DNA of 64,000 nt from an uncultured Gammaproteobacteria bacterium. Lineage in GTDB: Bacteria > Pseudomonadota > Gammaproteobacteria > Steroidobacterales > Foliamicaceae. The notes below the pieces were generated by a model that was given only the letters and a program-made list of their open reading frames with translations, ran no database searches and was not told the origin of the DNA. A program made the position numbers and the translations under genes. The stretch is taken from contig OX639965.1 in assembly GCA_951828235.1 (NCBI GenBank), positions 515,191 through 579,190 of the forward strand, given 5' to 3'. This document shows, in pieces, positions 5,822-53,624 of the stretch (position 1 is its first letter; each line of letters opens with the position of its first letter).

Positions 5822-6274
5822 CTACGCTTCGAGGATGCAATACAGCACGATCAGGTGGCCGTCGTGATCGAGCATGCCGATCTCGCGGCCCACGCGACCG
5901 TCGTGCGTACGCAGCGTTTCCTCCGGAAAGACATGCAGGCCTTCGGCGCGCGCGCCCTCCACGACGGCGTCGATATCGTCCACTTCCAGCACCAGCGCGT
6001 GGCTGCTCGGCAGGTTGGGCTCGGGCAGTTCCACGCCCTTGATCTCGGTCAGCGCCAGGCTGCGAACCTGATCTTTGGAACTGAGCGCGGCGAACCCGGT
6101 CGTGGCTTCCCGAGGGATCTGGAACACCGTAAACGAATACGATTCAGGGCGGTGCCCCAGGGTGAAATCCAGCTTAAAGCCAAGAATGTCGCGGTAGACG
6201 CGATAAGCGCGTTCCAGGTCGGCGACAACGAGATTGGTGCGTTGCACGCGCACCGGAAGATCACTGGTCATCAA
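5822..6274 (-). CDS. VOC/glyoxalase family protein
   Basis: RTNLVVADLERAYRVYRDILG, LVLEVDDID, MLDHDGHLIVL. Confidence 0.8.
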   Translation of the reverse strand: MMTSDLPVRVQRTNLVVADLERAYRVYRDILGFKLDFTLGHRPESYSFTVFQIPREATTGFAALSSKDQVRSLALTEIKGVELPEPNLPSSHALVLEVDDIDAVVEGARAEGLHVFPEETLRTHDGRVGREIGMLDHDGHLIVLYCILEA

Positions 6275-7771
6275 TCATTTCCCCATCTTGAGCATCGGAA
6301 AATCGGTGAGCGGGATGCTCACCGTCTTGGGTTCGGTGAAGAACTCCAGGCTGCCCCTGGCGCCGTCCCGGCCGATGCCGGACTGCTTGTAGCCGCCGAA
6401 GGGCGCCCGCAACTCGCGGTAGATCGGCGTGTTCACCCAAATCGTGCCGGCGCGAAGCTCGCGCGCCGCCCGCATGGTTACGTTGAGGTCCTGCGACCAT
6501 AGGTAGGCCACCAGGCCGAACTCCGAGTCGTTGGCGATGCGGAGCGCCTCGTCCAGGTCTTCGTACACCAGGAAAGTCGCAAACGGGCCGAAGATCTCTT
6601 CCTGGCAGATGCGTGCTGAGTTGTCGTCGGCGAGAACGGCCGTCGGTTCCACGAACCAGCCCTGCTCCATGCCCTCGGGCCGACCCCCGCCGGTCAGCAA
6701 CTTCGCGCCTTCCTCGCGCGCCAGGTCCGCGTACGACAACACGCGGTTCATGTGGTTCTCGTAGCACAGCGGTCCGATTTCGGTCTCCGCCTTGAGCGGG
6801 TCGCCGATGCGAAGCTTGCGGGACCGTTCCACGAAACGCTCGATGAACTCGCCGGCAATCGACTTCTGCACCAGGATGCGCGAACCCGCCAGGCATTGCT
6901 GGCCGTTGCCGGAGAAGATGCCGATCAGCGAGCCGTCCAGCGCGCGGTCGAGATCGGCGCTCTCGTGCACGATGTTGGCGGACTTGCCGCCCAGTTCCAG
7001 CAGCACCGGCTTGAGCGACTTGCCGGCCTCCGACATGATGATCTTTCCGGTCTCCGATCCCCCGGTGAATCCCACCATGTCCACCTCGGGATGCGTGACC
7101 AGGGCCGTGCCGGTAACCGGCCCCCGGCCGTTGACGAGGTTAACGACGCCCGGCGGCAGGCCGGCCTCGTGAAAAATCTCGACCATCCGCTGCATCGAGT
7201 GCGGAGTGTATTCGGACGGCTTCAGCACGCAGGTGTTGCCGAAGGCGATGCAGGTGGCCACTCGCATCGAAGCCAGCGGTATCGGGGCGTTCCACGGCGC
7301 CATCATGGCGCCCACGCCGACCGGCTCGCGGGTCACGTAGGTCAGGTAGTTGGGATTCTGCGTATAGACCTCTCCGGATTCCTGGCTCAGGACCTCGCCG
7401 AAGAACTCGAAGTTGTAGGCGGCGCGCGCCACGTGCATGGCGCGGACCTGGCTGATGGGCACTCCGGTGTTGAGGCTGTCCAAAAACTCCAGTTCCTCGC
7501 GGTGCCTGTGCAGCGCCTCGTGCATCGAGCGGAATATCGCCTTGCGCTCGTCGGCGCCCATGCGCGGCCAGGGGCCCGTCTCGAAGGCCTTGCGCGCCGA
7601 GCGCACGGCGGCATCGACTTCCTGGGCATCGGCCTCGCGCAGAACGCCGTTGGGTTCCTCGCTGGCCGGGTTGACGATCGGAAAGTCCACCCCGCGCCGC
7701 GACACACCCACGGATTCGCCGTCGATGATGCTGGTTACGCGCTCGCGCACGTCAAATGCCACGTCAGTCAT
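6275..7771 (-). CDS. Aldehyde dehydrogenase (resembles hydroxymuconic-semialdehyde dehydrogenase type)
   Basis: PWNAP, LKPSE, FTGGSETG, LELGGKS, GQQCLAGSR, EEIFGP, PFGGYKQSG. Confidence 0.92.
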   Translation of the reverse strand: MTDVAFDVRERVTSIIDGESVGVSRRGVDFPIVNPASEEPNGVLREADAQEVDAAVRSARKAFETGPWPRMGADERKAIFRSMHEALHRHREELEFLDSLNTGVPISQVRAMHVARAAYNFEFFGEVLSQESGEVYTQNPNYLTYVTREPVGVGAMMAPWNAPIPLASMRVATCIAFGNTCVLKPSEYTPHSMQRMVEIFHEAGLPPGVVNLVNGRGPVTGTALVTHPEVDMVGFTGGSETGKIIMSEAGKSLKPVLLELGGKSANIVHESADLDRALDGSLIGIFSGNGQQCLAGSRILVQKSIAGEFIERFVERSRKLRIGDPLKAETEIGPLCYENHMNRVLSYADLAREEGAKLLTGGGRPEGMEQGWFVEPTAVLADDNSARICQEEIFGPFATFLVYEDLDEALRIANDSEFGLVAYLWSQDLNVTMRAARELRAGTIWVNTPIYRELRAPFGGYKQSGIGRDGARGSLEFFTEPKTVSIPLTDFPMLKMGK

Positions 7772-8526: not shown

Positions 8527-9309
8527 TCATGCCATTGCCGTACGGGCCGCCGCCTCCCACAGAAGGCGTAGATCTTCATAGCCATCCACCAGGTGGCCGA
8601 GGGCGCGCCAATCCAAAAGATGCGCGCGGCCCCGGGCTGAGGCGAGCAGAGTTCGGGCCTCGCGTTCGTTGAGACTGTTGTGGCCCACTACCACCGCCAG
8701 GTCGAACAGCGGGTCGCCGGGCGCGGCAAATTCCCAGTCGATCAGCCGCAACGCCGGTCCGCACAAGACGTTTTGAGCCACCGGGTCGTTGTGGCACAGC
8801 GCCGGCCTGCGGCGCTCTCCCGCAGCCGCCTTGATGGATCGCAAGGCGGCGCGCGCCGTTCTCCGCGCCCACGCGCCGCCCAAGATGGAAGCGTAAAGTG
8901 CCAGGGCGCGCCTCAGGTCGAGCGGCTCCGTCACCGAGGGCGGCGCCGCGGTCCGGTGCAGCCGGCGCAGCAATTCCCCCAACGCGCGTAACCTGCGTGG
9001 GTGACGCAGCATGGCCGGAGTGCATGTGCGTCCCTCCAGCAGGCTCGTTACCAGCACGCCCCGGGTGGCATCGGAGTAAACCAGTTTCGGACCGAGCCCG
9101 CGGCCCGCGATCGAGCGCAACACGGCGGTCTCGGCGCCGCGGTCCAGGCCTAGCGCGCGAACCGCGGGCGTGTCCAGCCGAACGACAAGCCGCTCCTCAC
9201 CCCGCGCGGCCAGCCAGGTCTCGTTCCATCCTCCGCCGCCGGACAGCCGGCTCATGAATCGGATGTCCCCGAGATCGGGATGTTCGGGGAGCCGAGGCGC
9301 CGGGTTCAC
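8527..9309 (-). CDS. Choline/aminoglycoside-kinase-fold phosphotransferase, probable thiamine kinase
   Basis: CHNDPVAQNV and LIDWEFA motifs; GTG start overlaps the PnuC stop; last gene of a TPP-riboswitch operon. Confidence 0.8.
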   Translation of the reverse strand: MNPAPRLPEHPDLGDIRFMSRLSGGGGWNETWLAARGEERLVVRLDTPAVRALGLDRGAETAVLRSIAGRGLGPKLVYSDATRGVLVTSLLEGRTCTPAMLRHPRRLRALGELLRRLHRTAAPPSVTEPLDLRRALALYASILGGAWARRTARAALRSIKAAAGERRRPALCHNDPVAQNVLCGPALRLIDWEFAAPGDPLFDLAVVVGHNSLNEREARTLLASARGRAHLLDWRALGHLVDGYEDLRLLWEAAARTAMA

Positions 9310-9866
9310 GCCGGCAGGGCCTTGCGCCAGGACCGGTAGCCCAGCCACGCCAGGACCAGGTAGCTTGCATACAGCACGGCGGTGAAATAAAGGCCGCGTT
9401 CCAGGTACAGCGCCACGTAGATCGAGTCCAGCACGATCCACCAGATCCAGTTGCCGATGTACTTGCGCGCCTGCATGAATGTGGCCAGCGGCGCCGCCAG
9501 CGCGGTGACCACGTCGACAAAGAACAGGGACGATTCGCTGTATTGCGCGCCGAAGATCGTGATCGGGATCGAGACCGCGAGCAGCGCGGCCACCGCGATC
9601 ACGTTGTTGCGCCAGCCCCAGAATCCCAGCTTCGCCGGCTTCTTCGCTCCCTTGCGCCACTTGCGGTAGCCGTAGACAGCCATGATCATGTAGAAGACCT
9701 GCAGCCAGGGCTGGAATATCAGGCCGGCGTCGAGAAACACCACCACGAACAGTCCGGAAGCGAGGTACGACGCCGGCCAGCAGGCGATATGGCGGCGTAT
9801 GGCCAGCACCACGTAGACGAAACCGAGCGCGACGCCCACGATCTCCAGGACCGTCATGATTTCCAT
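9306..9866 (-). CDS. pnuT: PnuC-family transporter, probable thiamine specificity (PnuT)
   Basis: QVFYMIMAVYGYRKW, QARKYIGNWIWWIVLD; TPP regulon context. Confidence 0.85.
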   Translation of the reverse strand: MEIMTVLEIVGVALGFVYVVLAIRRHIACWPASYLASGLFVVVFLDAGLIFQPWLQVFYMIMAVYGYRKWRKGAKKPAKLGFWGWRNNVIAVAALLAVSIPITIFGAQYSESSLFFVDVVTALAAPLATFMQARKYIGNWIWWIVLDSIYVALYLERGLYFTAVLYASYLVLAWLGYRSWRKALPA

Positions 9867-10181: not shown

Positions 10182-12341
10182 CTAGAAATACCGGCGAATG
10201 GTAACGCCGAAGTGCCGCGGGTCCCCCTGCTGGCGGAACTCCTGTTGGGGCCAGTCCGGGGGCACATTCGAGAAATAGAACCCGCGGACCGCGTAATACT
10301 CGTCAAGAAGATTGCGCACCCAGGCGTATGCTTCCCAGCCATTCCAGGCTCGGCCGGCCCGCACGTTCAACAGCGAATAGGCATCCGACTTTCGGTCGTG
10401 GCTGCTGGAGAAGTAGAAGCCGTCCTTTCCGGTCAGCTCGCCGGCCGCGAACCAGCCCCGCGGGCGCCCCCAGCGGACCCCGAGCGCGTAGCCGTAGCCC
10501 GGCGCGTGCGGCTGCTCGCGGCCTTCCAGTTCCGGGCGGCCCGGGAAGCGCGTGATTTCCGTGTCCAGCAATCCAATGGCGGCGCTCATGCGCCAGGCCT
10601 CGTTAGGCGCGTAGTCCAGGGTCAATTCGATGCCGCGGTTATAGCCGCGGCCGACATTCCGGGTGAAGAAGACGAAGGTATTGGGGTCCTGCGGGTCAAG
10701 CTGCCGCGAGGTGTCCACCTGCACGTCGGCGCGCTGCGAATGGAAGACGGCCAGCTCGCCGCGCAGCCGGCCGTCCAGCCACAGCCCCTTTGCGCCCACT
10801 TCGTAGTTCCAGAGAAACTCCGGCTGATAGACCAGTTCCGCGGAAGTCAGCCCCTGGCCCGCCAGACCCAGGTTGAACCCGCCGGCCTTGTAGCCGCGCG
10901 CTGCGCGAGCGTAAACGCTTGTTTCATCGCCGAGCCGACGCGAAACGCTGACATGCCCGCCCGTCATGCCGTCCGTCGGCGAGAACCGCTCGCCGTTGGA
11001 ATCATCGTAGTCGGCGTCGCGCTGTTCCCGGCGCAGGCCAACGGTTACCCGCCATTCATCGGCGAACGCGCGCGAAAGTTCGCCGAACAGCGCCAGGCTG
11101 TCGGCGCCGTAGCTGGAACGGAAGCGGTCCTCGCTGGGGCCGGGCGCGTAACCCGGCTCGGCGTACAGGCCCCGGTCGACGCGATCATTGTCCTCGTCGA
11201 GATTCAGGAACCACACCCCCAACACGTAGTCCAGCCCGGCGTCCGCGGGCGACAGCAGGCGCAATTCCTGGCTCAAGCCGCTGCGCTCGCGCAGGGTGCG
11301 CGAGCTGTAGTCGTACTGCATGGCAAAGCCGGCGATTTCCGACCAGTAGGCGTCTTCTCCCCAGTCGGCGTCATAGCTGTGTTCGATATCGGAGCTCGCC
11401 CCGCCGGTGATGCTCACCAGCCGGTGGCCACCGCCCAGTTCCAGCTCGGCGCGCAGCGAAGCTCCGGTGGACGCCTGCGAATCGCGCCCGGGACGGTCCG
11501 AGAAGGTGGTCAGCCGGTTGTCGATCGACCAGCCGTCATAGCCGTTGTCGAGGTCGACATGCAGCAGCGTCAATCGCAAGGCCAGACCCGGCGCCGGATC
11601 GAAATTGAGCCTGGTCCTGAGGCTCAACTCCTCCCGGCCGTTGGTGTCGTCGCGATCCAGCGTGGCATTGCGCCGAAAGCCGTTGGCCCGGTACCGGTGC
11701 ACGGCCAGGCGCCCGGCGGCCTTTTCGCCCAGAGGCCCGCTGACGGCCAGTCCGAAAGCCCGCATATCGTCGTTGCCGAAGGAAAGCTCGGCTTCGGCTT
11801 CCGCGTCCCGGCCCGGCTCGCGGGAGCGCGCATAGATCAGTCCGGCCAGCGCGTTGGCGCCGTAGCGCGTGCCCTGCGGCCCGCGCAGGACCTCCACGCT
11901 GCCCAGGTCGAAACGCGTGGCGACGCCGCCGATGGCGGAGAAGTCGATGTCGTCCAGCAGGAAACCCACCGAGGGGTTCGGCGCGCCTTCGTACTGCGAG
12001 CGTTCGCCGATTCCGCGCACCTGAAAATAACGCGCCCGGGACGATCCGCCGGACCAGTGCAGGTTGGGCGTGAGCTGCACCAGTTCCTCGAAGTGTTGGA
12101 CCGACGAGCTCCGGATTGTCTCAGCGTTATGCACCGTAACGCTGGTCGGCAGGTCCAGGCTGCGCACCTCCTTCAACGAGGCCGTGACCACCAGTTCCTC
12201 CAGCACGCCGCCGGGCGCTTCCTCCGGCGAGGCTTGTTGCGGCTGCGCCGCGGAAACGGCAGCGGTAGCGCTGGCGAGCAGCACGCAAAGCGAGTCTGCG
12301 GCGAATCGGCCAATGAAGTTGCGGTTGCGGAAAAGCTTCAT
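10182..12341 (-). CDS. TonB-dependent receptor, probable thiamine receptor
   Basis: Signal peptide, LEELVVTAS TonB box, VEVLRGPQGTRYGANALAG plug, terminal Phe; ATG 12341 directly follows the riboswitch. Confidence 0.93.
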   Translation of the reverse strand: MKLFRNRNFIGRFAADSLCVLLASATAAVSAAQPQQASPEEAPGGVLEELVVTASLKEVRSLDLPTSVTVHNAETIRSSSVQHFEELVQLTPNLHWSGGSSRARYFQVRGIGERSQYEGAPNPSVGFLLDDIDFSAIGGVATRFDLGSVEVLRGPQGTRYGANALAGLIYARSREPGRDAEAEAELSFGNDDMRAFGLAVSGPLGEKAAGRLAVHRYRANGFRRNATLDRDDTNGREELSLRTRLNFDPAPGLALRLTLLHVDLDNGYDGWSIDNRLTTFSDRPGRDSQASTGASLRAELELGGGHRLVSITGGASSDIEHSYDADWGEDAYWSEIAGFAMQYDYSSRTLRERSGLSQELRLLSPADAGLDYVLGVWFLNLDEDNDRVDRGLYAEPGYAPGPSEDRFRSSYGADSLALFGELSRAFADEWRVTVGLRREQRDADYDDSNGERFSPTDGMTGGHVSVSRRLGDETSVYARAARGYKAGGFNLGLAGQGLTSAELVYQPEFLWNYEVGAKGLWLDGRLRGELAVFHSQRADVQVDTSRQLDPQDPNTFVFFTRNVGRGYNRGIELTLDYAPNEAWRMSAAIGLLDTEITRFPGRPELEGREQPHAPGYGYALGVRWGRPRGWFAAGELTGKDGFYFSSSHDRKSDAYSLLNVRAGRAWNGWEAYAWVRNLLDEYYAVRGFYFSNVPPDWPQQEFRQQGDPRHFGVTIRRYF

Positions 12342-12432
12342 ACCTCGTTCCTCCGCCGGTACTAACCGGATCAGGTTCAAGGGGTCCCCGTTGACAGGGT
12401 CTCAGGCCGAAGGGCCGCCCCCCAGGTGAGTG
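12342..12432 (-). promoter_or_regulatory. TPP riboswitch
   Basis: Minus strand reads GGGGGGCGGCCCTTCGGCCTGAGACCC...CCCTTGAACCTGATCCGGTTAGTACCGGCGGAGGAA, with the CTGAGA and GAACCTGAT TPP signatures. Confidence 0.93.
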
Positions 12433-39805: not shown

Positions 39806-39881
39806 TGGTGGGCCTGGCAGGACTCGAACCTGCGACCAAGTGGTTATGAGCCACCTGCTCTTACCACTGAGCTACAGGCCC
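39806..39881 (-). tRNA. tRNA-Ile2 (CAT anticodon, lysidine type)
   Basis: GGGCCTGTAGCTCAGTGGTAAGAGCAGGTGGCTCATAACCACTTGGTCGCAGGTTCGAGTCCTGCCAGGCCCACCA; 76-nt cloverleaf with encoded CCA; C4:G69 and C5:G68 pairs as in TilS substrates; TATACT upstream at 39895-39900. Confidence 0.9.
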
Positions 39882-42611: not shown

Positions 42612-43532
42612 ATGACCAACCTGACCGAAGTCGAAAACCGGGCCGGCATTGCCCGAATCACCTGCGGCTGGAAAAAGCCGGAACTGCCGCTGACCTGGGT
42701 TCGCCGCTACTGGCGGGACGTCCACAGCCCCGCCATTTCCCGCCGCGCAGGGATTTACGACTACCGGCACTACCAGTACGACGATGTCGACCCCGCCCTG
42801 TTGGGCGGAGTGGGAGGCGTGCAGCTCGAATGCTCCCGGGGCGAGCAACTCATGTGGACATCGGACGTTCGCTACCGGGATGATGCCGGCCTGGCGGCCT
42901 TCGACGCCACGCCGCCGCCTGACGTAAAGCCGCACTTGCTCGGCGACATCGAACTCATCGTGGACAGGAGCACGACCTACCGCGCCGTGGGTGCGAACAC
43001 CCGCACCTATGCCGACCGCACGGGCGACGCCACGCCCCAGGGTCCGCCCACCGCACCGGCTTACGCCCTGTTCATGCGCCGCCGTAGGGACGAACCCTCG
43101 TTCCGGGAATGCGTCAGGGCCCTGGCCCGGCGCTGGGCGGGCCTCGACGGCGTGCTGCGGGTGCGGATGAGCCTGTTCGACGCCCCGGACATGGAGGCCG
43201 AGCGCAAGGCGGGTTACCCGATCAAGACTCATCCGCCCGAACAGCAATACCAGGCCACGGTTGAAATCGTGCTGGGCGGGCGCGACACGGGCCGCGAACT
43301 GCTCGGTGACCGGGTCGCCGTGGATTGGGCGAGGTCCATCCGCACGATTCACGCGTACCCGGTGGCGGCCTGCTACACCAGCGTTTACGCCGGCCGGCCA
43401 ACTCTCGTGGGGCTGCGCGGGTATGCGGCGAATCAGGCGATCAGCGCGCTTGGCGCGCAAAACCAGGAGGAACCCGGCCTGCTGGAGTGGATGTACGGCG
43501 CCGCGGCGCGGGACGGCGTTTCCGGAGAATGA
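42612..43532 (+). CDS. EthD-domain protein (two domains)
   Basis: WVRRYWRDVHSP motif; the longer ORF-track start lies inside the MITE. Confidence 0.7.
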   Translation: MTNLTEVENRAGIARITCGWKKPELPLTWVRRYWRDVHSPAISRRAGIYDYRHYQYDDVDPALLGGVGGVQLECSRGEQLMWTSDVRYRDDAGLAAFDATPPPDVKPHLLGDIELIVDRSTTYRAVGANTRTYADRTGDATPQGPPTAPAYALFMRRRRDEPSFRECVRALARRWAGLDGVLRVRMSLFDAPDMEAERKAGYPIKTHPPEQQYQATVEIVLGGRDTGRELLGDRVAVDWARSIRTIHAYPVAACYTSVYAGRPTLVGLRGYAANQAISALGAQNQEEPGLLEWMYGAAARDGVSGE

Positions 43533-44896
43533 GCGTGAACCGGACCGTTGCCGAACGCCTGGTGGCCTTTGCCGGGGACCGTGCCGACAGCGGCGTCCCC
43601 GACGACGTGCGCCACGAGGCGAAACGGCTGTTGCTGAACCAGCTCAAGGCTTCGGTGGGCGCGACCGGTCACGAGGTCGTTCGCATCCTCCACGAGTGGG
43701 GCGGCGCGACCGGCGGCGAAGGCAACGCGCGGGTCCTGTGGCTGGGCACCCGGATGGAACCGGGCCGCGCGGCGATGGTGAACGGCGCGCTGTTCGAAGT
43801 GCTTGATTTCCATGACACCTACATTCCCTGCTACATGCACGCCACGTCCGCTGTCCTGCCCGCCGTCCTGGCGGCCGCCGAGTCCCGCGCGAACAGCGCC
43901 CGCGAGATGGTGGAGGCGCTGGCGCTGGGCATCGAAGTGGAACTGGCCTGCGCCCGGGCGCTGATGCCCACCGGCTACTACCGCGGCTTCGTACCGGCCG
44001 GCCTGACCGGCGGGGTAGGCGCCGCCGCCGCCTGCTCGCTGCTGGCGGGCCTGGACAGCGAGCGCATGCGCAACGCCCTGGCGATTGCCATGTGCACGGC
44101 CTTCGGCACCTACGAGTCGGTGGGAAGCATGACCCTCTCCTACATTACCGGCGCCACCGCCATGTCGGGGCTTAACGCGGCCGACTTGGCCGGGCGCGGA
44201 ATGGACGCGCCCGGCACCGCCTTCGAAGGCGACAAGGGAATGCGCGAGTCGTATTCCGACGAACCGGCGGAGAAGATCGAAGAAATCCTCGATTCGCTGG
44301 GAGACCCCTGGTGCATACACGGCCAGAGCTACAAGTCGGTGCCCACCGAAACCATTACGCACGCGCCCATCGAGTGCGCACTTGAGCTGCTGCCGCGCGC
44401 CGGGGGCCGGAAGGTGGAGCGGGTGCGCATCATGGTCGAGCCCATCGTGGTGGACATCTGCGACGAACGCATGGAACGCTTCGGCGATCCGCACAGCGAG
44501 CTCACCGCACGGTTCGACCTGTGTTTCTGCGTCGCGGCGGCCTGGCGGCGCGGACGTTTCACGCTGGACGAGATGCGCGAGCCCGCCTACACCGACCCTG
44601 ACATCCTGGCGCTGCGCTCACGCGTGGAGCTGGTCCGCGACGAGGGCCGCGAGAGTTTTGACGGCTGCTCGATGGAAATCGAGTTCAGCGACGGCACCAC
44701 CGAGTCCACTTCGGTGGACGCGTTCCTCGGCAGCCCCGGCCGGCGGATGAGCGACGAGGAACTTGCCGGGATTTTTCGTGCCGCGGCGGAACCCGTATTG
44801 CCCGCGGGACGGGCGGAAGAGATTCTTGCCGCCGTGTGGGACCTCGAATCGGCGCCGGACATTGACGGCCTGATGCGGCTTTGCCGCGTTGGCTGA
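43529..44896 (+). CDS. MmgE/PrpD family protein
   Basis: AAMVNG..LDFHDT, HATSAVLPAVLAAAE, AFEGDKG, YKSVPTETITHAPIE. Confidence 0.88.
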   Translation: MSVNRTVAERLVAFAGDRADSGVPDDVRHEAKRLLLNQLKASVGATGHEVVRILHEWGGATGGEGNARVLWLGTRMEPGRAAMVNGALFEVLDFHDTYIPCYMHATSAVLPAVLAAAESRANSAREMVEALALGIEVELACARALMPTGYYRGFVPAGLTGGVGAAAACSLLAGLDSERMRNALAIAMCTAFGTYESVGSMTLSYITGATAMSGLNAADLAGRGMDAPGTAFEGDKGMRESYSDEPAEKIEEILDSLGDPWCIHGQSYKSVPTETITHAPIECALELLPRAGGRKVERVRIMVEPIVVDICDERMERFGDPHSELTARFDLCFCVAAAWRRGRFTLDEMREPAYTDPDILALRSRVELVRDEGRESFDGCSMEIEFSDGTTESTSVDAFLGSPGRRMSDEELAGIFRAAAEPVLPAGRAEEILAAVWDLESAPDIDGLMRLCRVG

Positions 44897-45746
44897 GTTG
44901 CCGGCCGTGACGACTGTTTCACTGCCCCGCGGAGAGACGATCTGGTACCAACGCGTCGGCAACGGCGTGCCGGTGCTGCACATTCACGGCTCGGCATTCG
45001 GACACCGGAATTTCGAGCGCCTGACGCCGTTGGTCGCCGCCGACTTCGAGGTGATCGATTTCGACCTTCCCGGCTACGGGCAAAGCGCCGGCGCCCCCCG
45101 GGAAGGCGGCCTGGAAGGCATTGCCGACCAGGTGCATGAGTTCATCGGCGTGCTTGATACGGCGCCGATGCATGTGCATGGAACGTCCTTCGGCGCCATG
45201 GTGGCCCTGATCCTGGCGGCAAAGTACCCGCAGTCGGTCAACCGCCTGGTCCTGAGCTGCTTCCTCGCCCGCTACGACGGCGCGGCCCGCATGATGCGCG
45301 CCACATGGAGACGGGCGGCGCGCGACAGCGGCATGGCGGCCGTATCGGACCTGACGGCCGTGGCCGGTTTCGGCAGGGCGTTCTACGAACGTGAGGAGGC
45401 CGAAGAGCAGCTTGCCTCGATGCGCGAGGCGTTCAGCCGGACCGATCCCGAGGCCTTTGTGCGCGGCACGAAAATGCTGGAGCAGGTGGACTTGAGTCCC
45501 TGGGCCCGGCGCATCAAGGCGCCGACGCTGCTGATCGCGGGGGAAGAAGACAACATGACGCCCTTCGCCCCGGCCGACAGCGGGATCGGATTCTCCAGGA
45601 TCCAACACATGATCCCCGGCTGCGAACTCGCCACGGTGCCCGACAGCGGCCACTACCTGGTGATCGAACAACCGGAAGCCTCGGCGGCCCAGGTCAGGGA
45701 ATTCCTTCGGGCCGGCCCCACGTTCATGTCGGCCGGTCGCCCTTGA
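44889..45746 (+). CDS. Alpha/beta hydrolase
   Basis: HIHG, DLPGYG, GTSFG nucleophile elbow, GEED, SGHY. Confidence 0.88.
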   Translation: MAELPAVTTVSLPRGETIWYQRVGNGVPVLHIHGSAFGHRNFERLTPLVAADFEVIDFDLPGYGQSAGAPREGGLEGIADQVHEFIGVLDTAPMHVHGTSFGAMVALILAAKYPQSVNRLVLSCFLARYDGAARMMRATWRRAARDSGMAAVSDLTAVAGFGRAFYEREEAEEQLASMREAFSRTDPEAFVRGTKMLEQVDLSPWARRIKAPTLLIAGEEDNMTPFAPADSGIGFSRIQHMIPGCELATVPDSGHYLVIEQPEASAAQVREFLRAGPTFMSAGRP

Positions 45747-46608
45747 TCGTGACGCGCCGCCCCTTGCGCCGTTCGGGCCAGTAGTCCCAGATCGCCCGGT
45801 GCATCGCGCAGCGGTTGTCCCAGAAGGCGACGTCGTTGCGTTCCCAGCGATACCTGATCTGAAAGTCGATGCCTTCGCAGTGATCGAAGAGGAATCCGAG
45901 CAGCGCTTCGCTCTCGGCCGCTTCGAGTTCTTTGATCCGGGTCGTGAACGTGCGGTTTACAAAAAGCGTCTTTCGGCCGGTCTCCGGGTGCGTACGGACG
46001 ACGGGGTGAATCGCGCTTGGATATTCCCTGGCGATGTCGTCTACGCCGCGATCGGAGTAGCGCTCGCGGTAGACGTGCTCGGATTCGTGCAGGGCACTCA
46101 GTCCTTCGAGCATCCGCTTCATCGGCTCCGATAGAGCGTCATAGGCCGCGTACATGTTGGCGAATAGCGTGTCGCCGCCTACCGGAGGGAGGATGTGCAG
46201 TTGCAGGATCGTGCCGAGCGGCGGCACTTCGTCGCAGGACACGTCGGAGTGCCAGAATTCGCCGTTGGCGATCTTCGAGTTCCTGCCCACGTAGATTTCG
46301 AAGATTTCGGGGTAGCCCGCCATCTGAGGGGCGGCGGGGTGCATGTGAAGCTCGCCGAACATCCTGCCAATCTCGATTTGAGTTCGCGGGGAAATCTCCG
46401 TCTGGTCCTTGAAGAACAGCACCTGGTGCGCGAGCAGGGCCGCGCGAACCTGCTCGTACGTCGCGAGATCAAGGCCGCCCGCGAGATCGACGCCCCTGAC
46501 TTCGGCGCCGAGCGCGGGCGCGTAGCGCCTGATGTCGAGTGCGGACCCGGCACCATCACGGGTTGTTCGCGCGTTCAAAAGCGTTTCGGCATCTTCGATC
46601 GAACCCAT
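45724..46608 (-). CDS. TauD/TfdA family Fe(II)/2-oxoglutarate dioxygenase
   Basis: WHSDVS, GGDTLFA, HPVVRTHPETGRK, FWDNRCAMHRA; start codon uncertain. Confidence 0.92.
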   Translation of the reverse strand: MGSIEDAETLLNARTTRDGAGSALDIRRYAPALGAEVRGVDLAGGLDLATYEQVRAALLAHQVLFFKDQTEISPRTQIEIGRMFGELHMHPAAPQMAGYPEIFEIYVGRNSKIANGEFWHSDVSCDEVPPLGTILQLHILPPVGGDTLFANMYAAYDALSEPMKRMLEGLSALHESEHVYRERYSDRGVDDIAREYPSAIHPVVRTHPETGRKTLFVNRTFTTRIKELEAAESEALLGFLFDHCEGIDFQIRYRWERNDVAFWDNRCAMHRAIWDYWPERRKGRRVTIKGDRPT

Positions 46609-46681
46609 GGTACAACCGGGAAGCGTCGCCAACCGCGGCCCTTATCATGGAAAGCCTTCAGCGTCATGCCGGGGAGGAAAC

Positions 46682-48673
46682 GTGAAGCCCGACAACCAGC
46701 CCCACCCAGCTCCATCCGACCGGGAGGAACCGGCGCGCGTCAACCGCAGGGATTTCCTTTCGTCCGCAATGGCGGCCGGGCTGGCCGCCACAGGCGCCGG
46801 CGCCGCGGGCAAGGCTTCGGCGCGGCAGGCGGCCGACAATGCGCAGGCGCCCGGCGCCTTGCCGCCCACAGCCGCCCAGGAGGCGATGGAATCGGAAATA
46901 CCCCACGGCTACAGCGCCGATCAGGCGCGCGAGTATTTCGTCCGCAATCCGGGTTCCGATTTCATGCTGGACGTCATCCGGCGGCTCGGTCTCGAATACA
47001 TCGCCACCAATCCGGGTTCCAGCTTCCGCGGACTACAGGAATCCATCGTCAACTACGGCGGCAACCAGGCGCCCGAACTGCTGACCTGCGTGCACGAGGA
47101 ACAGGCGGCGGCCATGGCCCATGGCTACTACAAGGTCAGCGGCAAGCCCATGGGCGTGCTCTGCCACGGCACCGTGGGACTGCAGCACGCTTCCATGGCG
47201 GTCTACAACGCCTGGTGCGACCGGGCGCCGATGATTCTGCTCGCGGGCAACCACCTGGAGGCGACGGAGCGCCGGGCGGGCGTGGAGTGGTCGCATTCCG
47301 CGCAGGACTGCGTGCGGGTCATACGCGATTACATCAAGTGGGACGACATGCCGCTTTCCCTGCAGCACTACGCCGAGTCCATGGCCCGCGCCCTAAAGAT
47401 CGCGATGACGCCGCCGGCGGGACCCGTGGCCGTGGTGCTGGACGGCCATCTGCAGGAGGCCGAGGCGGGCAATCAGCGCCTGAGCCTGTTTTCCGTTTCC
47501 GTCAATCAGCCGCCCACCGGCAACGAGGCCGCGGTCGCCGAGGCGGCGCGCTGGCTGCTGGAAGCGGAATCGCCCGTGATCGTGGCGGACCTGATGGCCC
47601 GCGACCAGGAAGGCGTGGAGCGGCTCGTCGCCCTCGCCGAGGCCTTGCAGGCGCCGGTGGTCAACCAGTTCGGACGCATGAACTTCCCGAACACGCACTA
47701 CCTCTCGCAGGGTTCGACCGCGGTGGCCCAGGCCGACGTGGTGCTCGGGCTGGAACTCTTCGATGTCTGGGGCGTGATCAACACCGTGCGCGACCGGGTC
47801 CACCGCGACAGCGTGCGCAAGGCGCGGCCGGACGCCCGCGTGATCAGCATCGGCTCCAACGACCTGTTCACGAAGTCCAACTACCAGAATTTCCAGCGTT
47901 TCTATCCGTCGGACCTCTCCATCGCCGGGGACGCGCAGGCCACGTTGCCGATGTTGACCGATGCCGTGCTCTCGGGGATGCGGCCTGCGAGACGCGCGAC
48001 CAACGCCGCCAGGGAAGCACGCTGGAGGGAGGCCCACTCGCTCGCCCGCGCGCAGGCCCTGGACGAGGCGCGCTACGGCTGGAACGCCAGTCCGGTGAGC
48101 ACGGCCCGCCTCTACGCCGAACTGTGGAACGTGGTGAAGGACCGGGACTGGGCGCTGGTCTCGGACGACGGTGCGCAAAGCCGCTGGGCCCGCCGGCTAT
48201 GGCCCATCGACAGGCACTATCAGTACATCGGCCGTTCGGGCGGCGCCGGACTCGGCTATGGGGCGCCGGCGGCCATCGGCGCGGCGCTGGCCCACCGCGC
48301 CGAGGGGCGGTTCGCGGTCAACGTGCAGAAGGACGGAGACCTGATGTACACACCGGGCGCATTCTGGACCGCCGCGTATCACCGCATTCCGCTGTTGACG
48401 GTAACCCACAACAACCAGGGATATCACCAGGAATTCATGCACCTGCAGCGCATGGCGGCGCGGCGGCAGCGTGGGATCGACAGCAGTTGGCGGGTGGGCA
48501 ACGAATTGCGCAATCCCGACATCGACTTTTCCCGCATGGCCGGCGCCATGGGCGTGTGGGGGGAAGGCCCGATTACCGACCCGGACGACCTGGGCCCGGC
48601 CCTGGCCCGCGCCGCGGAGGTCGTCGACGGCGGAGAACCGGCCTTCGTCGACGTTCGCTGCCAGCCGAGATGA
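46682..48673 (+). CDS. ThDP-binding enzyme with Tat signal
   Basis: NRRDFL leader; NPGSSFRGLQES, HEE catalytic Glu, KDG-X24-NN ThDP motif; GGAGG before the GTG. Confidence 0.88.
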   Translation: MKPDNQPHPAPSDREEPARVNRRDFLSSAMAAGLAATGAGAAGKASARQAADNAQAPGALPPTAAQEAMESEIPHGYSADQAREYFVRNPGSDFMLDVIRRLGLEYIATNPGSSFRGLQESIVNYGGNQAPELLTCVHEEQAAAMAHGYYKVSGKPMGVLCHGTVGLQHASMAVYNAWCDRAPMILLAGNHLEATERRAGVEWSHSAQDCVRVIRDYIKWDDMPLSLQHYAESMARALKIAMTPPAGPVAVVLDGHLQEAEAGNQRLSLFSVSVNQPPTGNEAAVAEAARWLLEAESPVIVADLMARDQEGVERLVALAEALQAPVVNQFGRMNFPNTHYLSQGSTAVAQADVVLGLELFDVWGVINTVRDRVHRDSVRKARPDARVISIGSNDLFTKSNYQNFQRFYPSDLSIAGDAQATLPMLTDAVLSGMRPARRATNAAREARWREAHSLARAQALDEARYGWNASPVSTARLYAELWNVVKDRDWALVSDDGAQSRWARRLWPIDRHYQYIGRSGGAGLGYGAPAAIGAALAHRAEGRFAVNVQKDGDLMYTPGAFWTAAYHRIPLLTVTHNNQGYHQEFMHLQRMAARRQRGIDSSWRVGNELRNPDIDFSRMAGAMGVWGEGPITDPDDLGPALARAAEVVDGGEPAFVDVRCQPR

Positions 48674-49044
48674 GCGCGTTTTCGCGAATCGCCCAGTCAC
48701 CGGGCCTCGCTGTTCCGGTCCTGCTGTTATGGACGCTTGGTTGGGCGCTTGCGTCGGCTGAGGAGCCCGCGGACGACGTCCGGAAGGGCCGAGCGCTGTA
48801 TGTGAGCCAGCAGTGCTGGCAGTGTCACGGCCATGAAGGACAGGGAGGCGTAGCCGGCAATCGCATCGCTCCGACGCGGTATCCCTATGAAGCGTTTGCG
48901 CGGCTGGTGCGGTTTACGAACCTGATGCCGGCCTATTCGCCGAAGGTGCTCAGCGACGAGCAGCTCCGGCTGATCTATGCCTACGTGCGTTCCATGCCGG
49001 AACCGCCGCCGCTGGAAGAGATCCCCGAACTGGATTTCGACTAA
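48670..49044 (+). CDS. Monoheme class I cytochrome c
   Basis: Signal peptide, CWQCH, distal LMPAY Met; ATGA overlap with the ThDP gene. Confidence 0.88.
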   Translation: MSAFSRIAQSPGLAVPVLLLWTLGWALASAEEPADDVRKGRALYVSQQCWQCHGHEGQGGVAGNRIAPTRYPYEAFARLVRFTNLMPAYSPKVLSDEQLRLIYAYVRSMPEPPPLEEIPELDFD

Positions 49045-50201
49045 ATCGCGCAGTTCGTCGCGTCGAAACCGTAGACCCAGTCGGTGCTGGCGGCGCGCTG
49101 GCGCTTCTTGTCGCCGCTCAGGCGCTGATACAGGCTGGTCTGCGCCCTGGATTGCAGGATGACGCGGGCCGTGCGCTCGCGGCGCACCGCCTGGTAGCGT
49201 GACAGCGCCACCTCGAGATCGTCGTAGGCTTCAACGCACCGCGCCAGGATCACGGCATCCTCTATCGCCATGGCCGAGCCCTGCGCCATGAAGGGCAGCA
49301 TGGGATGAGCCGCGTCGCCCAGCAGCGCGATCCGTCCGTAAACCCATTGCTCCAGCGGGTCCCGGTCGAACAGGCCCCACTTGTAGAGCGCGCCTGCGGG
49401 AGTCGCCTCAAGCAGGGACTGCACGTCTTCATGCCAGCCGGCGAACCCGGCGCGCAGTTCACTGCGCTTCGCCGGGCGCGTCCAGCCCTCCCCGGTCCAG
49501 CGGTCCTGGACCGCGATGGCCACGTAGTTGACCAGCGAGCCGCCGCGCAGCACGTACTGCACGATGTGGCGATCGCGGCCGATCCACACTACCGATTCTC
49601 TTGCGGTCACGCGCTCCGGCAGGCCGTCCGCCGGCACCAGCGAGCGCCACGCCACCTGGCCGCGAAAACGGGGTTCCGCGCCCGCAAGAAGCCGGCCGCG
49701 CAGGGTCGACCGAATTCCGTCGCAGGCCAGCAGCAGATCGCCCACGGCGGCATCACCGTTTCTGAACTGCACGGTGACCTCCCCGCCCTCCTGTGAACAG
49801 TCCCTCGCCATGCGGCCGGCACTCAATTCGGCAGCGCCCTGCGCCCGCACGGCGGCCAGCAGCACATCCAGAAGGTCGCTGCGATGGATGTGGAAATACG
49901 GGGCGCCGTAGGCCGTTTCCATCGCTTCCGCCAGTGGCGCGTCGCCGATCACGCTGGCGTCGTCGAAGCGCCGGTACACGGAGGCGGACGGACGCAGGGC
50001 GGCGCGATCAAGGGCCGCCTCCAGGCCGAGATGGCGCAGCACGCGGGTGGCATTGGGTGTCAGCATGATGCCGGCGCCGATCTCGCTGAATTCCGGCGCC
50101 TGTTCGTACACCGCCACCCGGTACCCCGCCCGGCCCAGGGCCAGCGCGGCGGTCAGGCCCCCGATGCCGCCGCCGACGATGAGTACGCGCTCCGGCTTCA
50201 T
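49041..50201 (-). CDS. FAD-dependent monooxygenase (salicylate hydroxylase-like, group A)
   Basis: GGGIGG, DGIRS, LLGDAAHPMLPFMAQG. Confidence 0.92.
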   Translation of the reverse strand: MKPERVLIVGGGIGGLTAALALGRAGYRVAVYEQAPEFSEIGAGIMLTPNATRVLRHLGLEAALDRAALRPSASVYRRFDDASVIGDAPLAEAMETAYGAPYFHIHRSDLLDVLLAAVRAQGAAELSAGRMARDCSQEGGEVTVQFRNGDAAVGDLLLACDGIRSTLRGRLLAGAEPRFRGQVAWRSLVPADGLPERVTARESVVWIGRDRHIVQYVLRGGSLVNYVAIAVQDRWTGEGWTRPAKRSELRAGFAGWHEDVQSLLEATPAGALYKWGLFDRDPLEQWVYGRIALLGDAAHPMLPFMAQGSAMAIEDAVILARCVEAYDDLEVALSRYQAVRRERTARVILQSRAQTSLYQRLSGDKKRQRAASTDWVYGFDATNCAI

Positions 50202-50219
50202 GCTCGGGCCCCGACGCCC

Positions 50220-51074
50220 CTAGTCTTTCAGCAGGAAATCGGCGATTGCGGCCCGAATTCGCCCCCGTGCGGGCTGCAGATGAGCGTAGTCGCCGCCGCC
50301 CGGCACCACCACCAGGGCCTTGTCCTCCGTCGGCAGCCGCTCGAAGTACTCGGCCCGCTGTATCCCCCCGTGCATGTAGGCGGCCTTGCCGGCGCCGCTG
50401 CCGTAGATCATCAACACCGGGCAGGTCAGCGCTTCGGGATCGGCGGGAATGCTGCCTCTGGCGTTTTCCCGCCGAATGCCGTTGGGCGAGCGCGGCTCAT
50501 GCGCGGCCACGTAGTCCGCCAGCGCGCGGCGCATTTTCTCCGACCCGTACTGCGCTTCGCGCTCGAAGAAGTACTCCCAGCCGCCGCTCCACCACGGCTC
50601 CTCGGGGTCGAAGGGAATCAGGTTGCCGCCCCCGAGCGCCGGATCCAGCAGGACCATGCGCGCCACCCGCTCCGGGTGCTGTTCGCCGTACCGGGCGACG
50701 ATGCGCCCGCCCCATGACCAGCCCAGAAGATGGGGACGGGAGTGACCTTCGGCCGCCAGCCAGTCCATGACGCCCGCAAGGTCCTCGATCGCCACGTCGG
50801 TATCGACCGTGAGCGGGTCTTCGGGCGCATCGGACCGAGCGTAGCCGCGCAGGGCAAAAGTCACGGCAGCCAGTCCGCGGACCGCCAGGGCGTCCATCAG
50901 CGAATAGTCCTCGCCGCCGGGGAAATTGAGGTCGAATCCCGCCTGGCCGCTCAAATTTGCGCCCTGCACCAGCACCACGACATGGCCGCACCCCGGCGCA
51001 AGGCCCTTGCTGCGGGCCGCCAGCTTCCCGACCGGCCCCGGCACGAAGAAATCACGGCTTTCGGTCATGGTCAT
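50220..51074 (-). CDS. Alpha/beta hydrolase fold protein
   Basis: ALRGYARS, GWSWGG elbow, LMIYG. Confidence 0.82.
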   Translation of the reverse strand: MTMTESRDFFVPGPVGKLAARSKGLAPGCGHVVVLVQGANLSGQAGFDLNFPGGEDYSLMDALAVRGLAAVTFALRGYARSDAPEDPLTVDTDVAIEDLAGVMDWLAAEGHSRPHLLGWSWGGRIVARYGEQHPERVARMVLLDPALGGGNLIPFDPEEPWWSGGWEYFFEREAQYGSEKMRRALADYVAAHEPRSPNGIRRENARGSIPADPEALTCPVLMIYGSGAGKAAYMHGGIQRAEYFERLPTEDKALVVVPGGGDYAHLQPARGRIRAAIADFLLKD

Positions 51075-51133
51075 CGCTGCACGGCGAGCCCGCATGATAC
51101 ATTCGCAGTCCACGCGGGCACCGGGTGCGGGAG

Positions 51134-52231
51134 ATGAACAGAAGAGATGTTTTGCATGCGTCGGCGATGGCGGTTTCCGCCGGCATACTCGGGAGCACGT
51201 CCAGCGAGAAGGCCGCCGCCGAAGAGGCCGGCGCGGGCAACGCCGCGCAGGACGCACCCCGTGTCCAGTCCGGCCAGGCGCTTGCGTCTCCGGAAGAATC
51301 CAACCCCCTTCAAGCGAAGATCGTCGTGTTCACGACGGTCTCGCCGGACGTGGATGCCAGCATCCGCTTCTACACTGAGGTGATCGGCATGACCCTCGCC
51401 GACGAGGGCACGCTGACGGCGGCTGCCGGCAATGCGCCCGGCGTCGGAAATGCCGGAAGGCGCTACGCGATATTGCATATGCCGGAGCCCTCCGACAGCG
51501 CGCAGGTACGGGTGCTCGAATCGCCGAGGGGGGCGGCGGCCAATCGCCCGCGGCCCGACTCCGGTCCCGGAGACCCCGGGCTGCTGGTCATGGAAGGCGT
51601 TACGCGGGACCCGGCCGAGTCCTACCATCGACTCGCGTCGGCGAACACCCCGGTCATTACGCCGCCGCGCTATTACTTTTTCCGCAACACGACCTGGCGC
51701 CGTGACATCGACGTGATGAGCTATGCCGCTTTCGGGCCGGGCGGAGAGCAGATGTTCATTACCGCCCACGTGCGCAGCGACCGGCCGGAATGGACGCTGC
51801 CGGGGCTGCATTCCGGGTTTCACAACGCCGCCATCACCAGTCTCGACCAGCGCCCGGTGGACGCGTTCTACGAGCAGGCCTTGGGACTCAGGCGCAGCTC
51901 GCAGCTGGAATGTTTCCAGCGCAACACCAACGAGCTGATCGGCGCGCCGGACGACAGCTATTTCCTGTGGGGGAACGTGGGCATCGGGGTCAGCATCGAG
52001 GTGTGGGAGTTCAAGGCGGCCAGCGGCACCCTGTATCCCACATCGCTGGACCGGACCGGGCTGGCGATGATGACTATGCGCGTCAACGATCTCGGCAAGG
52101 TCCGCGAAATGTGCGAGGCCAGCGGTATTACGCCCGTGGGCGATGGCGCCCTGCCCCTGCTCGGCAATGCCCAACCCGAGGGATTCACGCTGCGCGGCGC
52201 CGTCGGCGAACTGATCGAAGTGATCGCCTGA
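51134..52231 (+). CDS. Tat-signal VOC family protein (multi-domain)
   Basis: MNRRDVL leader; DVDASIRFYTEVIG, FYEQALG, GPGGE, GAVGELIEV. Confidence 0.8.
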   Translation: MNRRDVLHASAMAVSAGILGSTSSEKAAAEEAGAGNAAQDAPRVQSGQALASPEESNPLQAKIVVFTTVSPDVDASIRFYTEVIGMTLADEGTLTAAAGNAPGVGNAGRRYAILHMPEPSDSAQVRVLESPRGAAANRPRPDSGPGDPGLLVMEGVTRDPAESYHRLASANTPVITPPRYYFFRNTTWRRDIDVMSYAAFGPGGEQMFITAHVRSDRPEWTLPGLHSGFHNAAITSLDQRPVDAFYEQALGLRRSSQLECFQRNTNELIGAPDDSYFLWGNVGIGVSIEVWEFKAASGTLYPTSLDRTGLAMMTMRVNDLGKVREMCEASGITPVGDGALPLLGNAQPEGFTLRGAVGELIEVIA

Positions 52232-52244
52232 ACATGCATCCCAT

Positions 52245-52302
52245 CCCCGGGGAGGGAAGGCGTCCCGCCTTCCACGAGGGCGGGACGCCTTCCCTTCCGG
52301 GG
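52245..52302. repeat. REP-like palindromic element, copy 4 (intergenic)
   Basis: 16-bp perfect stem gggaaggcgtcccgcc / ggcgggacgccttccc. Confidence 0.88.
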
Positions 52303-52322
52303 GCACGTCCCGGGATCCGGCG

Positions 52323-53624
52323 GTGACTGAATCAACGTTTGCCGCGTCGCAACGCTATCGGCGCTACGTCCTGGGGCTGCTGCTGGCGGTGATGACGCTG
52401 AACTACGCCGATCGCTACGTGATCGGCATCCTGCTGCCGCAGATCAAGTCCGACCTGGCGTTGACCGACACCCAGATCGGCTTCATCACCGGCGCCGCTT
52501 TCACGGTTTTCTACGCGCTGCTGGGGGTCCCGATCGCAAGCCTTGCGGACCGCCGCTCTCGCCGGAAGATCATTGCCGGGGCGCTGGCGCTTTGGAGCCT
52601 GATGACCTGCCTGTGCGGGCTGGCCCGGTCGTTTGTGCAACTGGCCGTGTTCCGTGTGCTTGTGGGCGTTGGCGAAGCAGGCTGCACGCCGCCGTCCCAT
52701 TCGCTCATATCCGACTATTTCGCTCCCCGCGAGCGTGCCATGGCCATGGCCGTGCTCGGCCTGGGCTCGTCTCTGGGGGTGTTCCTGGCTTTCCTGATCG
52801 GCGGCTGGATCACCGACGCCTATGGCTGGCGGGTCACGCTGGTGTCCTTCGGCGCCCCGGGGGTATTCATTGCGCTGGTCGTGTATTTCACACTGCGCGA
52901 CCCGCCGCGCGGCCACAGCGACGGCCTGGAAGTGGCGGAAGAGGCCCCGCGGATGTACCCGGCTTTCCGCGGCCTGTGGGCAAAGGGAACGTTCCGCTAC
53001 ATGGTCCTGGGCGGCAGCCTCTACGGCATGGTCAGCACCGCCCTGCTTGCCTGGTTGCCTTCGTTCTATACCCGCACCCACGGACTCGAAGTCGCCGCCG
53101 TCGGCACCTGGCTGGCGTTTACGAAGGCGCTGCCTCACGCCGCCGGCACCCTGCTGGGCGGCCTGCTGGCCAGCCGGCTTGCAAAGTTCGGAACAAAGCC
53201 GCCGATCTATCTTTGCGCCGGCGTACAGCTTGTGGCCGCGCCGTTCTACGCACTGGTTCTGCTGGTTCCCGATCCCACGGCTGCGCTGCTTTGGCTCATC
53301 GTGCCGGCCTGCGTGGGCGTGATGCAGGGGCCGGTGCTGTTCGCCACCATACAGGGCGTCGCCGACGTTCGCACCCGGGCCGTCGCCTCGGCGCTCATGA
53401 TCCTGATCATCAACCTGATCGCGGGCGTGATCGGACCGCAGGCGGTAGGCGTAGCCAGCGATTATCTGGCGGGATCACTGGGCGTGGATTCCCTGGGCGT
53501 AGCGCTGCTGATCGTGTGCGTGGCATGCAGCCTCGGCTCGGCCGGCCTGTTCTACCTGGCTTCCCGCAGCATCGAGCAGGACCTGCAGTATTCGCGGCCA
53601 ACGGGCATCAGAAAAGTGCTTTGA
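52323..53624 (+). CDS. MFS transporter (spinster-like)
   Basis: LNYADRY, LADRRSRRK, GVGEAGCTPPSHSLISDYF. Confidence 0.9.
   Translation: MTESTFAASQRYRRYVLGLLLAVMTLNYADRYVIGILLPQIKSDLALTDTQIGFITGAAFTVFYALLGVPIASLADRRSRRKIIAGALALWSLMTCLCGLARSFVQLAVFRVLVGVGEAGCTPPSHSLISDYFAPRERAMAMAVLGLGSSLGVFLAFLIGGWITDAYGWRVTLVSFGAPGVFIALVVYFTLRDPPRGHSDGLEVAEEAPRMYPAFRGLWAKGTFRYMVLGGSLYGMVSTALLAWLPSFYTRTHGLEVAAVGTWLAFTKALPHAAGTLLGGLLASRLAKFGTKPPIYLCAGVQLVAAPFYALVLLVPDPTAALLWLIVPACVGVMQGPVLFATIQGVADVRTRAVASALMILIINLIAGVIGPQAVGVASDYLAGSLGVDSLGVALLIVCVACSLGSAGLFYLASRSIEQDLQYSRPTGIRKVL

Follow-up and report, generated by a model that had tools for sequence, protein, structure and literature searches.

A stretch of 64,000 nucleotides from the genome of an uncultured gammaproteobacterium, referred to here as the window, contains a module of two adjacent genes, which encode a thiamine diphosphate (ThDP) enzyme (P0001) and a small monohaem c-type cytochrome (P0002). 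Judging from their sequences, the two genes probably constitute an operon for a ThDP-dependent dehydrogenase of the periplasm, with cytochrome c as its electron acceptor. A first-pass annotation of the same DNA had suggested a periplasmic dehydrogenase; this proposal has since gained a twin-arginine translocation (Tat) signal that is confined to one clade and a conserved cytochrome linkage that is absent from a signal-less sister family, whereas its chemistry and the export itself are what we infer from these patterns. Cytoplasmic localization, a missing cytochrome linkage or an already characterized family function had been named as findings that would speak against the idea; the genomic evidence yields none of the three.

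Export signal

The twin-arginine leader NRRDFL, which had been read from the DNA at the outset, is part of a predicted Tat signal peptide at the N-terminus of P0001 (Table 1). It is followed by 17 uncharged residues (S27-G43) and then by K-A-S-A, and an RRxF[LI]-type motif, preceded by N, S or D, is kept in 115 of the 121 closest homologues drawn from a collection of 5.8 billion proteins. In the leaders of these homologues the uncharged stretch is mildly hydrophobic (mean Kyte-Doolittle value 1.15) with a median length of 17 residues, and an AxA-like end is present in 112; the six sequences that lack the RR motif have shorter N-termini and are probably truncated gene calls. The limits of the signal-bearing group emerge when 1.8 billion cluster representatives are searched exhaustively with HMMER: every full-length match with at least 42% identity carries the RR signal, and the matches at or below 41% identity (565-610 residues) start straight at the catalytic core with YGSD. 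In a maximum-likelihood tree, all 42 signal-bearing sequences are found on one side of a branch with a Shimodaira-Hasegawa-like approximate likelihood ratio test (SH-aLRT) support of 100. TatC is encoded in the organism's own genome, which is a single contig of 3.11 Mb, and the ThDP enzyme is presumably exported by the Tat pathway.

An enzyme that stays in the cytoplasm has to be considered, since export is predicted from sequence: the RR stretch could be a membrane-association or regulatory extension and the cytochrome an unrelated passenger in the operon. Yet the full Tat pattern (polar-RR-x-F-L, ~17 mildly hydrophobic residues, then a basic c-region with AxA) is kept down to ~43% identity, it is absent from the sister family, and the cytochrome linkage tracks the signal; a non-exported enzyme appears most improbable.

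A second possible Tat cargo is encoded 2 kb from the module, a VOC/glyoxalase-domain protein (PF00903) with the Tat-like N-terminus MREMNRRDVLHASAMAVSAGILG.

Linkage to the cytochrome gene

Scanning 185,579 representative genomes, one for each prokaryote species, yielded at least 590 matches to the family. The best 80 of these, which originate from Acidobacteriota (49), Pseudomonadota of the gamma, alpha and beta classes (28) and, for the rest, Dormibacterota and Thermodesulfobacteriota, were examined together with the window; 78 loci are assessable. In 63 of them an open reading frame (ORF) with a CxxCH motif is located on the same strand within 450 nt downstream of the Tat-ThDP gene, for which the chance expectation, judged from stray matches, is ~0.7 in 80 loci; a CxxCH ORF within 1.5 kb on either side is present in 73 of the 78. 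The co-occurrence survey proposed with the first-pass annotation thus reveals a cytochrome linkage that is conserved across phyla. In 65 loci the distance from the ThDP stop to the cytochrome start ranges from -26 to +129 nt and is mostly between -16 and +20, and this close spacing indicates translational coupling of the two genes. The two proteins also diverge in parallel: their pairwise identities correlate across 55 loci with r 0.85, a value as high being reached in 0 of 2000 permutations of a Mantel test. The pairing is more than chance, and the cytochrome is a dedicated, co-inherited partner.

The reverse direction leads to the same partnership. A profile of the cytochrome family was used to search six genomes in which no cytochrome gene follows the ThDP gene on the same strand, namely those of L033, L056, L061, L039, L048 and L028 (four acidobacterial, one from Dormibacterota and one from Burkholderiales; the cytochrome loci are L165-L176). 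Each genome holds one to nine cytochrome matches, about six of which are strong in the genome with nine, and all nine assessable strong copies in the six genomes are positioned directly behind another ThDP paralogue; the cytochrome family therefore seems to be mainly a partner of these ThDP enzymes. Some Acidobacteriota seem to carry several ThDP-cytochrome modules.

Several of the ThDP genes beside the cytochromes of the reverse search look frameshifted in the assemblies (L171, L172, L176). Candidate fusions of the two proteins were rejected: in L031 and L077 the long ORFs run in another frame and are artefacts of GC-rich DNA, and P0293 (775 residues, in the cluster of P0116) is a frameshifted read-through that still has the cytochrome's own signal peptide. 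Through the latter protein, sequences of the ThDP enzyme and of the cytochrome have ended up in a single cluster at 90% identity. Nor did fusions emerge from a word search with a concatenated query in which only the cytochrome part was scored.

The sister family serves as a control. Its members (565-610 residues, near PRK08327) are 35-41% identical to the window protein and have its catalytic core, sharing E139, H162, D551, N578 and Y581 with it, but they are devoid of the signal, the linker and a neighbouring cytochrome of their own. Among 80 metagenome loci of this family, 59 of which are assessable, a downstream CxxCH ORF is found in only one, which differs from the Tat-bearing loci with a Fisher p of 4e-23; in this single exception (L150), the cytochrome is located directly ahead of another ThDP gene, which is itself Tat-bearing. 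The positions that distinguish the two groups adjoin the ThDP site: from the alignment, H576, H582, E584 (replaced by Asp in the sister family), M586 and Q589, which the Tat-bearing proteins conserve, might contact the substrate or provide a route for electrons. The sister family is itself uncharacterized and sparse in the same phylum (matches in 3 of 301 genomes), and the window protein belongs to the separate, signal-bearing clade of the tree.

A second, distantly related lineage of Tat-bearing ThDP enzymes, which forms a separate clade (SH-aLRT 99), is likewise found beside other c-type cytochromes, and its gene order points to an independent repeat of the arrangement. In L042, the stop of the ThDP gene (1786-3699) is overlapped by a dihaem cytochrome gene (pair 1786-4364); in L150, a cytochrome with a CFQCH motif is encoded directly upstream of the ThDP gene (5096-7072; pair 4810-7072). 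The organism's own genome encodes a paralogue of this second lineage outside the window (642 residues, ~1175448-1177374 on the minus strand of contig C1) with the leader ISRRQFGKVMAAVGFSAAAAES; no cytochrome gene lies alongside, and a DNA-methyltransferase-like ORF is located downstream.

The partner cytochrome

The ATGA overlap with the gene of a His/Met monohaem cytochrome, reported in the first-pass annotation, was confirmed, the product containing CWQCH and M86 (Table 1). P0002 has the signal peptide, single CxxCH, distal Met and helical fold of a class I c-type cytochrome, and it scores 44.6 bits with Cytochrome_CBB3 (PF13442; cut-off 27) and 32.4 bits with Cytochrom_C (PF00034). Invariant in the family alignment are G40, C49, C52, H53, G54, G59, R81, M86, P87 and L121; a hydrophobic N-terminus is present in all family members, and a proline-rich C-terminal tail ending in IPxL is conserved. 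Among solved structures, the closest are the second domain of actinobacterial QcrC and the domain at the C-terminus of CcoP; the Met-Pro of both, which is part of MP(K)F in the QcrC domain, aligns with M86-P87. The structural model (predicted local distance difference test, pLDDT, 81.5) has a small helical cytochrome fold and a tail without regular secondary structure; this tail could act as a docking arm. CcmE and subunit I of a haem-copper oxidase (COX1) are encoded in the organism's own genome.

The ThDP enzyme and its active site

The GTG start of the ThDP gene is shared with homologues of 81-98% identity, the N-terminus of which reads MKPD or MKPE. An alternative ATG at 46532 was rejected: the gene would then overlap the divergent TauD-family gene. 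The product contains the three domains of the superfamily in the order PYR, middle and PP, with scores of 72.5 bits for TPP_enzyme_N (PF02776), 45.3 bits for TPP_enzyme_M (PF00205) and 81.9 bits for TPP_enzyme_C (PF02775), all of which exceed the family cut-offs. In the AlphaFold model (pLDDT 84.4, predicted template modelling score 0.83), residues 1-58 are disordered and the remainder is folded. The closest solved relatives by both sequence and fold are the benzoylformate decarboxylases, which align at ~22% identity (E 1e-27) and are the best Foldseek matches (E ~1e-33, template modelling score ~0.8 on the target).

A known function could be hidden behind such a protein, as the database names of the homologues are all generic ('thiamine pyrophosphate-binding protein', 'acetolactate synthase large subunit-like') and the literature search was thin on subscription journals. 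This appears quite improbable: no chain in the PDB beats the benzoylformate decarboxylases, and the NCBIfam models all remain far below their cut-offs, including the top model, PRK08327 for a thiamine pyrophosphate-requiring protein (264.8 versus 456 bits), the benzoylformate decarboxylase equivalog PRK07092 (172.1 versus 493 bits) and the pyruvate oxidase model NF006377 (78.9 versus 742 bits), which covers residues 400-659 only. No characterized function of the family was found in the PDB, NCBIfam or the full-text literature, and the full-text search, which included few subscription journals, found neither an exported ThDP enzyme nor a pair of a ThDP enzyme and a cytochrome c. The acetone-induced ThDP enzyme of Desulfococcus biacutus was considered as an export precedent and rejected, no signal peptide being predicted for it.

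The sequence features that had first marked P0001 as a ThDP enzyme hold up in the alignments. HEE is found as H138-E139-E140, of which E139 is invariant, sister family included, and aligns with the catalytic Glu of benzoylformate decarboxylase; the variant KDG-X24-NN motif is K550-D551-G552-X24-N577-N578, in which the first Gly of GDG is replaced. Within this motif the family alignments show no variation at D551, G552 and N578, of which D551 and N578 are the metal ligands. According to the computed alignment, S113, E139, H162 and H339 correspond to the residues of benzoylformate decarboxylase that we take to be Ser26, Glu47, His70 and His281; all four are invariant or nearly so, H339 being invariant in the family alignment. 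The stretch after the NN pair reads NNQGYHQEFMH and resembles a sequence that we take to be NNxGYTIExM in pyruvate decarboxylase, so that E584 would match the catalytic Glu of the latter enzyme. Counted from NN, the phenyl-pocket positions A460, L461 and F464 of benzoylformate decarboxylase are presumably occupied by Q583, E584 and H587, all three of which the Tat-bearing proteins conserve; the hidden Markov model alignment instead places a nine-residue insertion at these pocket positions. The polar residues at the pocket positions argue for a small polar substrate. Of the substrates listed in the first-pass annotation, phenylglyoxylate is disfavoured by the same three residues, and the list as a whole consisted of guesses.

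Redox centres other than the partner haem are not apparent. A reading of the ThDP enzyme sequence finds five cysteines, no CxxCH and no iron-sulfur cluster motif; by eye, no flavin-type motif is seen in the central domain, and the RFDDR-like motif of acetohydroxyacid synthase is absent. These features would suit an exported enzyme with non-redox chemistry, which could decarboxylate its substrate or act as a lyase or carboligase in the manner of benzaldehyde lyase or cyclohexane-1,2-dione hydrolase; the cytochrome would then serve as a structural subunit, as a redox sensor or activator, or as a donor of electrons instead of their acceptor. The closest relatives of solved structure are indeed non-oxidative (benzoylformate decarboxylase, benzaldehyde lyase, glyoxylate carboligase), and H162, H339 and E584, the proton-relay residues for a non-oxidative release, are conserved. 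We nevertheless consider a non-redox enzyme unlikely: if no electrons were transferred, it would be difficult to see why a dedicated, co-inherited and translationally coupled cytochrome occurs exclusively next to exported ThDP enzymes, and the second Tat-ThDP lineage is likewise located beside c-type cytochromes.

Proposed mechanism

A periplasmic dehydrogenase composed of the two gene products might operate in the following manner. The large subunit would fold, bind ThDP and Mg2+ and dimerize in the cytoplasm. ThDP sites sit between two subunits and ThDP is made in the cytoplasm, so that loading and dimerization would precede export, hence the Tat route for folded proteins, by which the holo-enzyme would reach the periplasm. 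The small subunit, a predicted class I His/Met monohaem cytochrome c, would be exported by the Sec pathway and matured by the Ccm system. In the periplasm, the enzyme may bind a small polar 2-oxo acid, which would be decarboxylated, or an aldehyde, which would be deprotonated, either yielding the ThDP enamine. The partner haem would then oxidize the enamine in two one-electron steps, water would hydrolyse the acyl-ThDP, and a carboxylic acid would be released; the haem-copper oxidase would receive the electrons of the reduced cytochrome. In ThDP enzymes, oxidation of the enamine by chemical one-electron acceptors is known, ferricyanide being an example. Haem c would thereby be the direct natural oxidant of a ThDP enamine, with neither flavin nor iron-sulfur cluster nor coenzyme A (CoA) involved, and the enzyme would represent a new class of respiratory dehydrogenase (Enzyme Commission number, EC, 1.2.2.x); this more specific proposal is a serious possibility, to which we would give slightly less than even chances.

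Known systems each match one part of the proposal. (i) Benzoylformate decarboxylase (MdlC, EC 4.1.1.7; 1BFD, 4Q9D) has the same three-domain fold, the catalytic Glu and, as far as seen, no flavin motif; in contrast to the window protein, it is cytoplasmic and non-oxidative and has a hydrophobic phenyl pocket, whereas the window protein adds the Tat signal, a linker of ~40 residues, E584 and the cytochrome c partner. (ii) PoxB (pyruvate:quinone oxidoreductase, EC 1.2.5.1, formerly 'pyruvate dehydrogenase (cytochrome)', EC 1.2.2.2) and the pyruvate oxidase POX of Lactobacillus plantarum (EC 1.2.3.3) belong to the ThDP superfamily, and the PoxB type carries out the kind of reaction proposed here, oxidation of a ThDP enamine with electrons passing to the respiratory chain; they use a flavin adenine dinucleotide (FAD) relay, act on the cytoplasmic side and have quinone or O2 as acceptor, whereas no flavin is indicated in the window enzyme, its predicted location is the periplasm and its acceptor would be haem c. 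(iii) The sulfite dehydrogenase SorAB and the flavocytochrome c enzymes FccAB and PchCF, as is generally known, combine a Tat-exported catalytic subunit with an adjacently encoded, Sec-exported small cytochrome c and feed an oxidase; their cofactor is molybdopterin or FAD, and their catalytic subunits are non-homologous to the ThDP enzyme. (iv) Pyruvate:ferredoxin and oxalate oxidoreductases (EC 1.2.7.x) perform a flavin-free, one-electron radical oxidation of a ThDP intermediate with transfer to metal; they differ in having an unrelated ThDP fold and [4Fe-4S] clusters, and they are cytoplasmic, usually CoA-dependent and oxygen-sensitive. To our knowledge, all characterized bacterial ThDP enzymes of the superfamily are cytoplasmic, and the oxidative ones use flavin or iron-sulfur relays.

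Several points weigh against a periplasmic dehydrogenase. The export of the enzyme, its complex with the cytochrome and the transfer of electrons between them are steps that we infer, and for a direct transfer from ThDP to haem we know of no natural precedent; nor is a flavin or iron-sulfur relay visible in the enzyme sequence that could take its place. Fifteen of the 78 assessable loci are without a same-strand downstream cytochrome; in ten of these a CxxCH ORF, for example a convergent or an upstream one, is located no more than 1.5 kb away on one side or the other, and in L033, L048, L056, L060 and L061 no such ORF is present within this distance. The gene neighbourhood varies across the 81 loci and gives no hint of a substrate. 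The evidence for expression is weak, consisting of short contigs that include relatives at 90-95% identity and may stem from DNA carry-over.

Genomic context

The coordinates of the module and of other features in the window are listed in Table 1.

Table 1. Features of the ThDP-cytochrome module and of other loci in the window (positions in window numbering).
Feature	Position	Strand	Remarks
Shine-Dalgarno-like GGGGAGGA	46671..46678	+	ahead of GTG 46682; read from sequence
ThDP enzyme gene (P0001), 663 residues	46682..48673	+	GTG start
Predicted Tat signal peptide, residues 1-47	46682..46822	+	probable cleavage after A45-S46-A47
Twin-arginine motif N21-R22-R23-D24-F25-L26	46742..46759	+	R22, R23 invariant in two family alignments
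PYR (N-terminal ThDP) domain, residues 91-200	46952..47281	+	PF02776; contains S113, E139, H162
Codon of catalytic E139	47096-47098	+	within PYR domain
Central domain, residues 285-424	47534..47953	+	PF00205; contains H339
PP (C-terminal ThDP) domain, residues 497-658	48170..48655	+	PF02775
ThDP/Mg motif D551-G552-D553...N577-N578, then Y581-H582-Q583-E584-x-M586-H587	48332..48415	+	second part clade-specific
ATGA overlap	48670..48673	+	cytochrome ATG 48670, ThDP TGA 48671-48673
Monohaem c-type cytochrome gene (P0002), 124 residues	48670..49044	+	PF13442, PF00034
Sec-type signal peptide of cytochrome, residues 1-30	48670..48759	+	ALASA end; probable cut after A28-S29-A30
Haem-binding motif C49-W-Q-C-H53	48814..48828	+	C49, C52, H53 invariant in family alignment
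M86 (M86-P-A-Y), probable sixth haem ligand	48925..48927	+	invariant in family alignment
TauD/TfdA dioxygenase gene	45724-46632	-	divergent from ThDP gene
FAD monooxygenase gene	49041-50201		convergent to module
VOC/glyoxalase-domain protein gene	51125-52231	+	PF00903; possible Tat cargo
tRNA gene	39809-39881	-	Rfam RF00005, 76.3 bits
Thiamine pyrophosphate (TPP) riboswitch	12330-12432	-	Rfam RF00059, 67.5 bits; ahead of TonB-dependent receptor gene
TonB-dependent receptor gene	10182-12380	-
APH/choline-kinase-family phosphotransferase gene	8527-9660	-	further downstream, same strand

The next gene, encoding an FAD monooxygenase, is convergent to the module, so that the transcription unit appears to consist of the ThDP and cytochrome genes alone. 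Clustering of the ORFs over the 81 loci identifies the cytochrome as the sole conserved neighbour; the runner-up is a major facilitator superfamily (MFS) transporter in 15 loci, and amidohydrolases, a pyrroloquinoline quinone (PQQ) dehydrogenase, a molybdenum hydroxylase and a UbiD-like protein occur in at most 13 loci, their position not being fixed. On the other side of the module, the TauD/TfdA dioxygenase gene is separated from the ThDP gene by 49 nt between the starts, an arrangement that is not conserved elsewhere. A scan for promoters and terminators gave nothing above the shuffled background. The flanking regions of the window (43325-46632 and 49041-53624), which encode an MmgE/PrpD protein, two alpha/beta hydrolases, the TauD/TfdA dioxygenase, the FAD monooxygenase and an MFS transporter, look catabolic.

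Metatranscriptomes from four marine and sponge runs contain contigs that align to the ThDP gene with 90-100% identity, among them a match of 151 identical bases at 47130-47280, and no metatranscriptome contig spans the junction between the ThDP and cytochrome genes. The sequence of the organism's own genome recurs in sponge-metagenome runs.

The riboswitch locus probably serves the salvage of thiamine or a precursor. In the first-pass annotation, thiamine uptake had been cited as fitting a high ThDP demand of the enzyme; this argument was dropped, the locus being 34 kb away and in another transcription unit. As it is distant, and as the module has no conserved neighbour besides the cytochrome, the riboswitch locus is uninformative on the ThDP enzyme.

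Implications

The pair is best regarded as a novel member both of the ThDP enzymes and of the periplasmic dehydrogenase-cytochrome pairs, and it has a realistic chance of representing a new enzyme class. If the proposal is true, it would add new electron-transfer chemistry to a classic cofactor, and the second ThDP lineage would have reached the same solution independently. The Tat pathway would have a new, large cargo, a ThDP-loaded dimer of ~130 kDa. Organic acids or aldehydes would enter aerobic respiratory chains without uptake of the substrate, and the several modules per genome would suggest a periplasmic substrate-oxidizing set comparable to the PQQ dehydrogenases. Soil Acidobacteriota and Gammaproteobacteria from marine and sponge samples account for many of the family's matches; given this wide occurrence, the substrate could matter for carbon turnover.

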